Positions 10,515-17,352 of a stretch of DNA of 42,740 bases are shown here, piece by piece. The stretch is from Eledone cirrhosa (taxonomy: Eukaryota). Within the stretch, counting starts at the first letter, position 1. Each line of letters starts with the position of its first letter. The notes beneath the pieces are model-generated. The model did no database searches. It was given only the letters and a program-made list of their open reading frames with translations, and had not been told where the DNA came from. The stretch spans positions 1 to 42,740 of the forward strand of contig CAXHJY010001546.1 of NCBI GenBank assembly GCA_964016885.1, given 5' to 3'. Both the position numbers and the translations under genes were made by a program.

Positions 10515-10583
10515 TATTTTATCTGATGAAGACGTACTGAAAAAACAACAACACAATACCTTTGAAATATATATAATAAAGCA
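10515..10583 (+). ncRNA. Hammerhead ribozyme, AUA family, solo copy
   Basis: TATTTTAT-CTGATGA-[agacgtactg...caataccttt, imperfect stem II]-GAAA-T-ATAT-ATA|ATAAAGCA. Stem I pairs at 7 of 8 positions. Confidence 0.7.
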
Positions 10584-10624
10584 TATATTTTGATTATGTG
10601 AATATCTTTCATTTGTTAATATTT

Positions 10625-10627
10625 TGA

Positions 10628-10665
<38 letters not shown>

Positions 10666-10677
10666 ATATATATACAC

Positions 10678-10732
<55 letters not shown>

Positions 10733-10799
10733 TATATATATATATATACACATATATATACATATATATATACATATATATATATACATATATATATAC

Positions 10800-10844
<45 letters not shown>

Positions 10845-10859
10845 CATATATATATATAC

Positions 10860-10908
<49 letters not shown>

Positions 10909-11151
10909 CATATATATATATACATATATATACATATATATATACATATATATATATACATATATATATACATATATATATATACATATATATATACATA
11001 TATATATATACATATATATATACATATATATATATATACATACATATACATATATATATACATATATATATACATACATATATATATACATATATACATA
11101 TATATATACATACATATATATACATATATATATATACATACATATACATAC

Positions 11152-11184
<33 letters not shown>

Positions 11185-11280
11185 CATACATATATATATA
11201 TATATACATATATATACATACATATATATATATATATACATATATATACATACACACACACAACATATATATATATATGT

Positions 11281-11330
<50 letters not shown>
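10625..11330. repeat. (TA)n/(TACA) microsatellite
   Basis: Directly visible. Confidence 0.95.
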
Positions 11331-11336
<6 letters not shown>

Positions 11337-11376
11337 GATATTAAATAAATGGAAACTATATTTATAAAACCATATT

Positions 11377-11442
11377 TATTTCATTATATATATTTCAGGG
11401 ATATCATATTAACAATATGTTATGCCTTCATCAGACAAAATA
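11377..11442 (-). ncRNA. Hammerhead ribozyme (left arm of element 1)
   Basis: UAUUUUGU-CUGAUGA-AGGcAUAaCAUAUU guu AAUAUGaUAUcCCU-GAAA-U-AUAU-AUA|AUGAAAUA. Confidence 0.85.
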
Positions 11443-11458
11443 CAATATAAACATTTTG

Positions 11459-11519
11459 TATTTTGTCTGATGAAGGCATATTGTTAATATGATATCCCTG
11501 AAATATATATAATGAAATA
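11459..11519 (+). ncRNA. Hammerhead ribozyme (right arm of element 1)
   Basis: CTGATGA at 11467-11473, GAAA at 11500-11503, predicted cut after 11511. Stem I has 8 bp including two G-U pairs, and stem II carries a 5-nt deletion relative to the left arm. Confidence 0.8.
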
Positions 11520-11649
11520 AATATGGTTTTATAAATATAGTTTCCATTTATTTAATATCATAAATATACTCCAAATACTTGTTGAGTGCTTTTATATCAG
11601 TTATAAATATTTACTCGTTGTTAACCCAACAATTTAAATATAACTTTCC

Positions 11650-11690
<41 letters not shown>

Positions 11691-11693
11691 CAC

Positions 11694-11725
<32 letters not shown>

Positions 11726-11835
11726 TGGTAAACGGAATAGAAAATGCTGACAAATTGTTCACAGTGAAAAATAGTTTAATTAGGAATAAGTGAGAATTAG
11801 TAATTGTATTGGTTAGTATTCAGTTTTGGTTTTAA

Positions 11836-11873
11836 GTTTTACCGGTTGCGCATTTCTAATGCTTTTCAAAAAT
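11836..11873 (-). ncRNA. Hammerhead ribozyme, U3-A8 family, probably inactivated (GAAA to GCAA)
   Basis: uuu-UUGAAAA-GCAU uagaa AUGC-GCAA-C-CG-GUA|aaa. The upstream flank is homologous to 12135-12160. Confidence 0.6.
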
Positions 11874-11903
11874 AATTTTGAGATAGAGCGTCCGTGATGT
11901 TTG

Positions 11904-14104: not shown

Positions 14105-14150
14105 ATTAGGCAACAATGTTTCGTCCTATTAAGGACTCATCAGGGCAATT
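14105..14150 (-). ncRNA. Hammerhead ribozyme (left arm of element 2; stem I mismatch)
   Basis: GCC-CUGAUGA-GUCCU uaau AGGAC-GAAAC-AUU-GUU|GCC. A G-to-C change relative to the right arm breaks the middle pair of stem I. Confidence 0.75.
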
Positions 14151-14261
14151 AAAGCTATAAGAAGCACTATCGGCCAACACAAGCCATGCTTTAATGTATG
14201 TACACTCCATATTCTTCTGAGTTTTTGGCTTGTATTGGCCGATAGTGCTTCTTATAGCTTT

Positions 14262-14307
14262 AATTGCCCTGATGAGTCCTTAATAGGACGAAACATTGTT
14301 GGCTAAT
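14262..14307 (+). ncRNA. Canonical minimal type-I hammerhead ribozyme
   Basis: TTGCC-CTGATGA(14269-14275)-GTCCT taat AGGAC-GAAAC-ATT-GTT|GGCTAA. Predicted cut after 14300. Confidence 0.92.
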
Positions 14308-14635
14308 AAAGACTTTTGATGTATTGAAGGCTTCTTTGGTTTATTTTCATAATTCTTCGGCTCTGTTTAATTACATTGAGCTATACCTTTACTGTCATTT
14401 CTATAATACGAAGAGGGTGTTTAACTCCAACACACTCTAGTATTTTAATTCATATGTATATATATGTATATATGTATATATATGTATATATATATACATA
14501 TGTATATATATTTATATATGTATATATATATACATATGTATATATATATACATATGTATATATATATACATATGTATATATATACATATGTATATATATA
14601 TATATATATACATATGTATATATATTTATATATCA

Positions 14636-15056
14636 GTAATAGAGAAGACCCGCCTTACCTAAATACAAAGTAAAACCTACTACAGTCAGTAGGCATCTCT
14701 AACAAAATACACCCCCGTCCCACCACCCCCACCCCATCCACACCGCCCCTTTCAATGTAAAGTTATGTTGGTCCCACAAAATCCAGGCCGAAACAAATGA
14801 GATCGTGTAGGTGTCACAACAAAAAAAACATACAGTCCACGCTGTAAATGTGGCCGTGTAGGCAACACGGTAAAAACCTCCCAGCCCCACATTGTAAATG
14901 TGGTTGGTGTTAGGAAGGGCATCCAGCCGTAGAAAACCCGCCAGACAGTCCTATGCGAGCAAGACAACCACTCTTGCCTCAAGTGGGAAAACTCCCGTCC
15001 AAACCCATGCAAGCGTGGAACATGGACGTTAAACGATGATGATGATGATGATGATA
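14636..15056 (+). mobile_element. Non-autonomous retroelement (about 420 bp) with (GAT)n tail
   Basis: Homologous end to end to the inverted copy at 32311-32748. It ends GGTTGGTGTTAGGAAGGGCATCCAGCCGTAGAAAA...CGTTAAAC(GAT)n. Orientation is inferred from the tail. Confidence 0.8.
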
Positions 15057-15209
15057 TACATATGTATATATATATATATTGATATATATATACATATGTA
15101 TATATATTTATATATGTATATATATATATATACATATATATATATACATATGTACATATATATATGTGTATATATATACATATGTATATATATATATATG
15201 TATATATAT

Positions 15210-15742
15210 GCCAGTTTAGTCGCCAACGTTTCTTGGTGAGGAGGGTGACTTTGGACAGCCTGCAGGACTAAAAACAAAACCTGTCAAAGGGCAAAGGAGC
15301 TCTTAAGAGTCAATGGCCATCCAAAATCACCGGGAGAGATGATCCCTTAGCCTTTGTCAAGGCAGAATTCTAGGAGAAGGAAAACTCTGATATAACACCT
15401 GCAACCCTGATAGTATCCAATGATGTTGACTTGTTCTTCTTTTTGGTAAATATCATATTGATTAAGAGAGTGGGACTGGCTTTGTGCAGTGCCTTTGCTC
15501 ACTATAAAAGCTTCACGGCACAGGCATTGCTTTATATCTGGAGATCTCTCTGCACTTGTCGTCACATGGTACCATGGGCCCAGCACTATGTGTCAATAAT
15601 TGTCACAAGTGTAGTGTTTGTACCAGAGTTTTCAAGTCGCTGGCTGAACTAAAAAGTCACACTCGTTCAGCGCATCGGTAGGAGTTCTCCTACATGGATA
15701 TAAAGTAGTGGCCATACTCGAAAACGAGTTGGCAGCCACCAT
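15210..15742 (+). mobile_element. Internally deleted RTE-like LINE (5' UTR joined to C-terminal zinc finger and 3' end)
   Basis: 15595-15681 reads [28 protein letters not shown] (C2H2). The motif CTAGGAGAAGGAAAACTCTGA near 15370 and the end CTCGAAAACGAG..CAGCCACCA resemble RTE termini as I recall them. Confidence 0.6.
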
Positions 15743-16009
15743 GTATATATATACATATGTATATATATATATATGCATATATATACATATGTATATATAT
15801 ATATGTATATATAGATATGTATACATATGTATAGATATGTATACATATGTATATATATATATATATATATGTATACATATGTATATATATATATATACAT
15901 ATGTATATATATATATATATGTATACATATGTATATATATATATATGTATACATATGTATATATATATATATATGTATACATATGTATATATATATATAT
16001 GTATACATA

Positions 16010-16346
16010 TCATCATCATCATCATCATCACCGTTTTACATCCGTTCTTCCACGCTAGCATGGGTTAGACGGGTTGTCCTGTTGTGGGCAGTGTCTGGTC
16101 GGCTGACCATGCCTTGCTCATACAGGAACTGATCTGGCTTGATTTCTACAGCTGGATGCCCTTCCTAACACCAACCTCATTTACAGTGAGTGCTGGGTGC
16201 TTTTTCGTGGCGCCTACACGTCCACTTTACAGTGTGGGCTGGGTGCTTTTTTGCCGTGGCACCTCCACGACCACCTTGCGGTGGGGGGAGTGGGGGCATA
16301 TTGTTTATATGCTTCAGCATGTACCCATGGGAGGTCGGGTACCCTG

Positions 16347-16347
<1 letters not shown>
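16010..16347 (-). mobile_element. Second subfamily of the (GAT)n-tailed retroelement
   Basis: (CAT)n followed by TTCCACGCTAGCATGGGTTAGACGGG...TTTCTACAGCTGGATGCCCTTCCTAACACCAACC, shared with 32311-32480. Confidence 0.8.
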
Positions 16348-16387
<40 letters not shown>

Positions 16388-16479
16388 GTATATATATATA
16401 TATATACACATATGTATATATATATATATATATACATATGTATATATATATATATTTGTGTATATATACATATGTGTAA

Positions 16480-16508
<29 letters not shown>

Positions 16509-16513
<5 letters not shown>

Positions 16514-16595
16514 AGAACAAAAGATGGTTAAAAGAGTTCCATGTATTTTATTATGCACATTGCTTTATTGTACTACAATAAAACTCACCTCCTAC

Positions 16596-16597
<2 letters not shown>
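16509..16597 (-). mobile_element. 89-bp two-ended deletion derivative of the element 4 family
   Basis: The first ~48 nt match 17053-17100 and the last ~40 nt are the reverse complement of 11962-12001. The HHR core is deleted. Confidence 0.7.
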
Positions 16598-16639
<42 letters not shown>

Positions 16640-16761
16640 CAAAAGGGATATTCAATTTGTTGGTAATTCAATAAATATAAATGTTTATAACTGATTCAGA
16701 GCCCTCGACAAGTTTTCTGGAGTATAATATTCAATGATATTAAATAAATGGAAACTATATT

Positions 16762-16822
16762 TATTCCATTATATATATTTCAAGAGTACCAAAACTTTGG
16801 TACGCTTTCATCAAATAAAATA
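16762..16822 (-). ncRNA. Hammerhead ribozyme (element 3 left arm; uncompensated C3U)
   Basis: The core reads UUGAUGA instead of CUGAUGA; otherwise it mirrors 16924-16984. Confidence 0.65.
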
Positions 16823-16923
16823 CAAAGTTTGTTTTATAAATATTGACATAACCAAGAAAAGATACCTTTGAACTGCTAAGCTATCTTTTCCTGGTTATGT
16901 CAATATTTATAAAACAAACTTTG

Positions 16924-16984
16924 TATTTTATCTGATGAAAGCGTACCAAAGTTTTGGTACCCTTGAAATATATATAATGGAATA
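16924..16984 (+). ncRNA. Hammerhead ribozyme (element 3 right arm)
   Basis: TATTTTAT-CTGATGA-AAGcGTACCAAA gt TTTGGTACcCTT-GAAA-T-ATAT-ATA|ATGGAATA. Predicted cut after 16976. Confidence 0.88.
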
Positions 16985-17087
16985 AATATAGTTTTATAAA
17001 TATAATTTCCATTTATTTAATATCATTGTATATGTATATATATATATATAATATATAAGATCAAAAGATGGTTAAAAGAGTTCCATG

Positions 17088-17158
17088 TATTTTATTATGC
17101 GCATTTCAAAAACAAATATCATCATACAATAACATTTGTGTTTTCATCAGATAAAATA
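17088..17158 (-). ncRNA. Hammerhead ribozyme (element 4 left arm)
   Basis: Exact mirror of 17282-17352. Confidence 0.88.
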
Positions 17159-17281
17159 GGAAGACATGATATGAAGGTTAAAAAACACTTGTGAATAGTG
17201 CAGTTTTAAATCAACATATGATATGTTGATTTAAAACTGCACTATTCACAAGTGTTTTTTAACCTTCATATCATGTCTTCC

Positions 17282-17352
17282 TATTTTATCTGATGAAAAC
17301 ACAAATGTTATTGTATGATGATATTTGTTTTTGAAATGCGCATAATAAAATA
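17282..17352 (+). ncRNA. Hammerhead ribozyme (element 4 right arm)
   Basis: TATTTTAT-CTGATGA-AAAcACAAATGTTATT gtat GATGATATTTGTtTTT-GAAA-T-GCGC-ATA|ATAAAATA. Stem I is a perfect 8 bp, loop 3 is palindromic, and the predicted cut is after 17344. Confidence 0.9.

Follow-up and report, generated by a model that had tools for sequence, protein, structure and literature searches.

Type-I minimal hammerhead ribozymes are known from Penelope-like elements (PLEs), where they lie on opposite strands 100-700 bp apart and carry a palindromic loop 3 (Cervera and de la Pena 2014, PMC4209133). By our reading of the Fig. S3 text of that work, a U15.2-A16.2 pair occurs in 15 of 56 published animal motifs and an AUA triplet in 2 of 56. 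Both AUA motifs are PLE-linked (Schmidtea and D. willistoni, the latter with a 4-nt palindromic loop), and an A-U pair closes stem II in the Marsupenaeus row (PMC4209133, Fig. S3). PLE insertions include inverted 5'-truncated copies with a one-sided tail and, in several clades, (TA)n targets (Craig et al. 2021, PMC8557442); the tail has been accounted for by two reverse transcription (RT) starts, and protein-assisted cleavage has been described (PMC11167929). AUA hammerheads that also have U15.2-A16.2 are present in ELVd (+), sCYDV-RPV (+) and the cherry small circular RNA (-), and these cleave, more slowly than GUC after transcription (Carbonell et al. 2006, PMC1636495).

The window, by which we mean the whole stretch of DNA analysed (42,740 nucleotides), holds type-I hammerheads within a high-copy repeat. 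They are likely Penelope-like pseudo-LTR ribozymes that would cut after AUA only as paired copies. The original prediction had placed four motifs on the plus strand, and these places were borne out; three minus-strand twins, absent from that prediction, were found in addition. The features are given below, with L1 to L4 denoting the four loci.

10515..10583, plus strand: L1 hammerhead; C3 at 10523, cut predicted after 10575; twin absent, stem II weak, stem I of 6 bp
Beyond the L1 hammerhead: L1 3' flank, homologous to L2 and L3, then (TA)n
11328..11568: L2 head-to-head palindrome; arms 11328-11445 and 11456-11568, 5-nt indel between arms, (TA)n flanks
11459..11519, plus strand: L2 plus hammerhead; C3 at 11467, predicted cut after 11511
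11377..11442, minus strand: L2 minus twin hammerhead; C3 at 11434, stem II intact
11569..11648, plus strand: L2 one-sided 3' tail, ending at (TA)n
11964..12111: remnant of the L4 subfamily, paired head to head and cut off 3' of the ribozyme; tail on the minus arm
16500..16597: second remnant of the L4 subfamily, again paired head to head; the minus arm begins within stem III and the plus arm consists of just the tail end
16639..16735, minus strand: L3 one-sided 3' tail, homologous to the L2 tail
16723..17038: L3 head-to-head palindrome; arms 16723-16868 and 16878-17038
16762..16822, minus strand: L3 minus twin; C3 site 16814 is U, likely impaired
16903..17003, plus strand: predicted stem I extension of L3 plus, a 13-bp helix beyond an 8x6 internal loop
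16924..16984, plus strand: L3 plus hammerhead; C3 at 16932, predicted cut after 16976
17045..17395: L4 near-perfect palindrome; centre 17220, without tail, (TA)n on both sides
17088..17158, minus strand: L4 minus twin, identical to L4 plus; C3 at 17150
17282..17352, plus strand: L4 plus hammerhead; C3 at 17290, predicted cut after 17344; GCGC loop 3, 16-position stem II

A strict general hammerhead descriptor matched six times in the window, at the four plus-strand motifs and two of the minus-strand twins, and not once in any of 200 block-wise dinucleotide shuffles. As read from their sequence, the four motifs are type-I hammerhead-ribozyme folds with U15.2-A16.2 and an AUA triplet, for which self-cleavage after AUA is predicted. 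The core (C3 U4 G5 A6 N7 G8 A9, G12 A13 A14, A15.1-U16.1, H17) is intact in six of the seven copies, the exception being the L3 minus twin with U3 in place of C3. One detail of the proposed consensus, T or G as the sixth base after the cut, was wrong, the four copies having G, A, A and A. A covariance model built from six of the seven window copies recovered only those seven from the window, at 62-86 bits. No Rfam hammerhead model was present among the 57 matches at E up to 10 within 16640-17390, or at gathering score within the whole window; Rfam miRNA and snoRNA matches, below gathering score among the 150 of 307 matches listed, were rejected as palindrome or microsatellite artefacts. Scans with the family pattern gave no match in viral contigs, none in prokaryote genomes and one in metagenome contigs (L001), which we treat as a chance match since its loop 3 is non-palindromic, it scores 25 bits and it was chosen by the pattern itself. 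An open reading frame from the core ATG (compare the anole element) was also discarded: the L3 plus frame is closed within 16 codons, and the stem II lengths are out of frame.

Stem III has only 2 bp, inside an 8-mer that is exactly self-complementary in all seven copies. Loop 3 stays palindromic while changing from ATAT to GCGC, as had been claimed, and the proposed U-A stem III pair, AUA triplet and dimer geometry are likewise supported by the sequence. Closing stem III in the monomer costs 2-4.6 kcal/mol, the homodimer duplex is at -3.2 or -10.5, and the heterotypic L3 plus and L4 plus 8-mers do not pair (+1.7). Next to the core, 95 of 96 cells of stems I, II and III are paired across six rows, and 4 of the 16 stem pairs have changed on both sides. 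The pair at 10.1-11.1 is A-U in all six distinct rows, some reads having G at 10.1, and the three base pairs at the base of stem II are followed by C·C or C·U in every copy, which agrees with the C-pyrimidine mismatch described originally. The statement that stem II sequences are unrelated yet pair each time holds for the distal parts; the base is related, and stem II of L1 (locus 10515) fails when folded alone (MFE 0), the other copies folding with z of -2.3 to -4.4. The CATATT/AATATG pairing assigned to 11459 belongs to the L2 minus twin, the plus copy being without 5 nt and in another register. With the core held open, L1 plus and L2 plus do not adopt the hammerhead fold. Covariation across copies is suggestive and falls short of formal significance, because there are just four independent insertions.

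Read-laying identified related sequence in 7,962 contigs of X1, in 28,322 of the 12.5 million reads of X12, and in 17 contigs of X5 and 33 of X6; the repeat is a high-copy family, found also in two other organisms. Among the 40 of 96 variants listed, none falls at the 28 constrained core positions and one at N7. Fourteen are stem variants, of which 11 keep pairing alone, one more does so with its listed partner, and two break pairing unless an unlisted partner changes; as a test this is weak (P about 0.06 when set beside 46 of 82 possible transitions, on these 40 variants). Together with the 95 of 96 paired cells, the absence of listed variants from the constrained core supports the claim that the structure is under selection. 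All 15 of the 19 joints that are listed link a variably cut inverted arm to 17218-17223, and the inversions therefore arose many times.

A minus-strand mirror twin accompanies three of the four motifs, the two forming the arms of head-to-head palindromes of 240-350 bp set in (TA)n, with folding energies from -156 to -263 kcal/mol. There are five inverted pairs in all, three palindromes with ribozymes and two remnants without. A one-sided tail of 80-95 nt is attached to L2, L3 and both remnants, and none to L4; conserved structure in the tails was rejected (z of -0.4, 0.8 and -1.2). The palindrome is perfect in L4 alone, and the L3 arms differ in their main part by 4 substitutions and a 14-nt deletion. 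An assembly artefact is unlikely, because the L2 and L3 arms differ and variable junctions recur in another sample. This anatomy fits that of 5'-truncated, inverted PLE insertions, whose pseudo-LTRs bear dimer-type minimal hammerheads. The window copies are probably inert, since in a read-through RNA every ribozyme would be paired to its antisense twin, and they look like decaying inserts, selection having most likely acted on the source element. For the distinct AUA-cleaving family proposed at the outset, the fold, the AUA triplet and the dimer geometry stand, while its context of inverted, truncated PLE-like repeats had been overlooked.

Like the PLE minimal hammerheads (PMC4209133), the family is type I with a palindromic 15.2-loop 3-16.2 segment, a longer stem II and dimer geometry, in dispersed truncated copies and opposite-strand pairs at the spacing given above. 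G10.1-C11.1 and one additional base behind A9 belong to the published PLE consensus, from which some Fig. S3 rows depart; the window copies have A10.1-U11.1 and lack the additional base. They also differ in the fixed C·pyrimidine mismatch after 3 bp, in a stem II of 26-36 nt, in the 13-bp distal helix of one subfamily, and in an AU-rich stem I of 8 bp against 4-5 bp in the Schistosoma families. The EN+ PLE insertions of the Hydra clade (PMC8557442) share the inverted 5'-truncated copy, one-sided tail and (TA)n target, and in EN+ PLEs the hammerhead is near the 3' end and U precedes GAAA in many file S2 rows. In contrast to the window, every listed Hydra-clade motif combines a GU-H triplet with a stem III of 3-4 bp, and the tail there is 30-40 bp. 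The viroid-like AUA hammerheads differ in being monomeric, with a stable stem III of 5-6 bp, in replicating plant RNAs (PMC1636495). No description of the family turned up in the literature searched on octopus hammerheads and 10.1/11.1 pairs; the variant may already be listed by Lunse et al. 2017, whose subject is PLE hammerheads that cleave as dimers.

Under the Penelope-like reading, two ribozymes in a tandem element transcript would exchange 8-mers, giving an 8-bp stem III and cleavage; dimer cleavage may be slow, or aided by an element protein. The element's GIY-YIG nuclease would nick the (TA)n target, and reverse transcription would begin on uncleaved RNA from two start points, some 45-55 nt and 130-140 nt beyond the cut site. 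It would halt early, in many cases at 45-70 nt upstream of the core, after which the two cDNAs would be joined head to head. A Pfam scan of 88 of the 175 candidate reading frames gave no RT or GIY-YIG match; the repeat copies are truncated. Because no PLE protein was found we can only infer the Penelope-like membership. Six family motifs had no match in the PLE library of PMC8557442, where line-wrapped text could conceal matches. Naiad 'half-core' elements were rejected as a source, the single 3' end compared being different and the six motifs giving no match.

Activity as a monomer, in which an extended stem I, its internal loop docked at the C·pyrimidine mismatch in stem II, offsets the 2-bp stem III, is improbable. 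The 13-bp distal helix of L3 plus (16903-16915 with 16991-17003) is as stable in only 3 of 1000 shuffles, the complete hammerhead fold of this copy lies within 1 kcal/mol of the MFE, the helix is hit at 1 of its 26 positions by the 40 of 96 variants listed, and the mismatch C is found in every copy. Against these points, the helix is weak in L1 (34/1000) and missing in L4 (749/1000), and the self-complementarity of loop 3, needless for a monomer, survives a full change of sequence. It is doubtful that the architecture is new, joining a dimer-type stem III to an extended stem I docked on the stem II mismatch, with fast cleavage that needs no protein and with spread mainly in the form of short head-to-head pieces, which a fixed RT stop just upstream of the ribozyme would produce.

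Non-LTR retrozymes are similar in that a type-I hammerhead sits in a short AT-rich non-coding animal repeat (PMC7229834), and a 2026 preprint derives retrozymes from PLE pseudo-LTRs. A short non-coding unit that is cleaved into monomers, made circular and replicated with a borrowed RT would suit the 5' boundary that many copies share shortly upstream of the core, where read depth drops (16887 and 17221). Yet in known retrozymes units of 150-450 bp, with canonical hammerheads and loop-loop contacts, follow one another head to tail (PMC7229834), whereas all five pairs here are head-to-head and no head-to-tail tandem hammerhead units of 150-450 bp occur within the window. Moreover, 255 X12 reads and contigs of X1, X5 and X6 run upstream of 17221 with one common sequence, whose upstream read end has no second occurrence within the window; we regard a retrozyme as distinctly improbable. 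Very improbable, too, is a DNA fold-back or MITE-like repeat, with hairpins made by template switching and the hammerhead likeness incidental or an unselected passenger, even though the copies form palindromes at the DNA level within AT-rich surroundings and the distal part of stem II makes a small inverted repeat of its own. The core letters and stems I and III are kept across subfamilies while pairs change two-sidedly or to G·U, the same nest holds other hammerhead types, and the pairs, unlike terminal inverted repeats, face outward in head-to-head orientation, their junctions varying and their ends unequal.

The U-A pair and AUA triplet, presented originally as unusual, have precedents in viroid-like RNAs (PMC1636495) and PLE hammerheads (PMC4209133), and dimer-type cleavage with an AUA site is an already known arrangement. 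The novelty lies in the family itself, in a C·pyrimidine mismatch conserved within its long stem II and, for one subfamily, in a stem I extension of 13 bp. One more hammerhead family of the PLE type adds little in principle. Because Rfam misses the family entirely, standard annotation overlooks a ribozyme-like repeat that is very abundant in this genome. The natural swaps (loop 3 from ATAT to GCGC, a replaced stem II, a kept mismatch) and five two-ended insertions in 7 kb make up a ready test set for asking whether the hammerheads of PLEs work as dimers in vivo and in what way inverted insertions bearing a one-sided tail come about.

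The window DNA is animal-like, possibly octopus-like, rich in AT and microsatellites, and carries transposon debris. Using a descriptor scan, plus-strand hammerhead motifs were located at all four loci of the original prediction (L1 to L4), and three of these proved to have a mirror copy, or twin, on the opposite strand. In L1 to L4 the motif runs CUGAUGA, stem II, GAAA, U, four bases, AUA and stem I.

Hammerheads and related remnants in the window (hammerheads from the descriptor scan; a tail is extra 3' sequence on one palindrome arm)
C3 at 10523, plus strand: L1 hammerhead
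C3 at 11467, plus strand: L2 hammerhead
C3 at 16932, plus strand: L3 hammerhead
C3 at 17290, plus strand: L4 hammerhead
11434, 16814 and 17150, minus strand: twin hammerheads
11964-12111: head-to-head remnant of L4 type with an L2/L3-type tail
16500-16597: head-to-head remnant of L4 type with an L2/L3-type tail

A strict general descriptor gave six matches in the window vs none in any of 200 block shuffles. A model built on six of the copies retrieved all seven, with no further convincing copy in the window; no hammerhead match to Rfam was found here. The motifs noted at these loci are therefore confirmed, while their interpretation is supported in part.

L2-L4 have an 8-bp stem I and L1 a 6-bp one; one mismatch excepted, its variation is confined to exchanges of U-A with U·G and of A-U with G·U. 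The base of stem II comprises A-U, two pairs changed on both sides, C·C or C·U, and two more two-sided changes, so that the C-pyrimidine mismatch already noted does recur after three pairs. Over six rows, 95 of 96 cells were paired, a count or score reached by none of 500 shuffles, and 4 of 16 pairs showed two-sided change (equalled by 25 of 500 shuffles). Since the rows include twins and the structure was drawn from those same rows, these figures are no more than suggestive of covariation. The claim that stem II pairs in every copy holds for its base; distally, L2-L4 form good folds (z -2.3 to -4.4) but L1 does not. Stem III comprises 2 bp, and its closure within a monomer costs 2-4.6 kcal/mol. 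The 8-mer across stem III and loop 3 is self-complementary in 7/7 copies in both its ATAT and GCGC forms, as had been proposed for loop 3. In L3+ a predicted 13-bp distal helix prolongs stem I beyond an 8x6 loop (3/1000 shuffles); L1 has only a weak form of this helix, L2 a truncated one, and L4 lacks it.

PMC4209133 describes minimal hammerheads of Penelope-like elements (PLEs) with a palindromic stem III, a long stem II and low activity as dimers, in opposite-strand pairs 100-700 bp apart. By eye, and with the GAAA column detached in the text, U15.2-A16.2 occurs in 15 and AUA in 2 of the 56 rows of its Fig. S3; one of the two AUA rows has a 4-nt palindromic loop, like the window copies. Cleavage by hammerheads that combine U15.2-A16.2 and AUA is documented for ELVd and related RNAs (PMC1636495), and G10.1-C11.1 is the usual pair, with known variants (PMC3088659). 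No description of the window family was found in the literature searched; Lunse et al. 2017 may already include the variant.

The L2, L3 and L4 hammerheads are arms of head-to-head palindromes flanked by (TA)n, with the ribozymes facing outward. L2 and L3 share a homologous tail of 80-95 nt on a single arm, and the two L4-type remnants are cut inside the ribozyme or 3' of it. For PLEs, PMC8557442 reports truncated copies in inverted orientation, tails on one side and (TA)n as target. The window copies are probably inert, since the palindromes have computed folds of -156 to -263 kcal/mol that pair 89-97% of their bases, and the 8-mers of the neighbours L3+ and L4+ are computed not to pair with each other.

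Part of 16640-17390 was present in 11 sequencing runs from 7 studies, half or more of it in 3 of them. Four runs were aligned to 16845-17250 at 80% likeness, yielding 7,962 contigs in X1, 28,322 reads in X12 (reduced-representation DNA), and 17 and 33 contigs in X5 and X6, both labelled as other organisms. This shows that the hammerhead-bearing repeat is a high-copy family, the counts giving no copy number. Among the 40 of 96 variants listed, 19 fall beyond the two ribozymes; stems account for 14, loops for 6 and N7 for a single one, and the 28 constrained core positions have none. Eleven of the 14 stem variants keep pairing alone and one more with its listed partner; the other two break it unless an unlisted partner changes, one being compensated in L2 (P about 0.06 on the variants listed). 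One loop 3 variant retains dimer pairing via G·U; a second, which disrupts it, does not occur in X1 and may derive from one locus. In 15 of 15 joints listed (of 19), the inverted arm is cut within 17084-17165 and the direct arm, of which the reference included only the first 30 bases, begins at 17218-17223. A common sequence, also in X1, X5 and X6, extends upstream of 17221 in 255 reads. From joints and reads together, inversions arose many times at a preferred stop within a longer element.

All 11 relaxed hammerhead matches of the 42.7-kb window fall in a (TA)n-rich 7-kb stretch (10500-17400), where ribozyme-bearing repeats of no fewer than four types cluster. A second type of palindrome (14060-14352) carries a hammerhead with a GUU triplet (C3 14269), whose minus-strand twin differs at 2 bases; an extension on one side reaches about 14450 and ends in (TA)n, and this is likely another PLE family. 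A lone hammerhead-like motif at 12746-12780 (-) has a CUGAAGA core, G15.2-C16.2 and a CUU triplet. UUGAAAA-core motifs at 12161-12190 (+) and 11840-11869 (-), the latter with GCAA for GAAA, are of the U3-A8 type published for Schistosoma PLEs and carry a CCGG palindrome in stem III.

Pfam scans of 88 out of 175 candidate frames (every frame in 9.9-18 kb; elsewhere those of at least 62 aa) gave no match to RT or GIY-YIG, the PLE protein domains. An open frame fragment at 13477-13970 (-), with no Pfam match, resembles the C-terminus of a LINE reverse transcriptase. Split transposase-like frames at 40197-41027 (-) include an HTH match below the Pfam cut-off (40647-41027), the remainder resembling a Tc1/mariner catalytic domain. 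Other features are a single C2H2 zinc-finger fragment at 15508-15678 (+; 24.7 bits, just below the Pfam cut-off), a dispersed SINE-like repeat starting at (ATC)n tracts (14640-15060 (-), 16010-16340 (+), 32310-32740 (+)), long minisatellite arrays of differing units (25800-29740, 30960-31400, 34700-37900, 24950-25095) and a partial tRNA match at 39620-39677 (+; 29.8 bits), probably a SINE head.

While folds, twins, tails, targets and abundance come from our data, dimer cleavage is carried over from PLE biology: a tandem transcript would bring two ribozymes together, their 8-mers would join as an 8-bp stem III, and each ribozyme would cut after AUA. Insertion would begin with nicks in (TA)n, with reverse transcription starting some 45-55 and 130-140 nt beyond the cut site, stopping early and being followed by head-to-head joining. 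Since the inserts span the cut site, the template RNA would be uncleaved or religated. In the anole PLE of PMC11167929, the ribozyme required the element protein for cleavage and was dispensable for in vitro insertion; the tail was attributed to two internal RT starts, a scheme that fits the window insertions too. We infer PLE membership from insertion anatomy and not from an ORF. By analogy, the family would work like a PLE dimer-type hammerhead, with cleavage predicted; its features of interest for the bench are the extended stem I and the C·pyrimidine mismatch.
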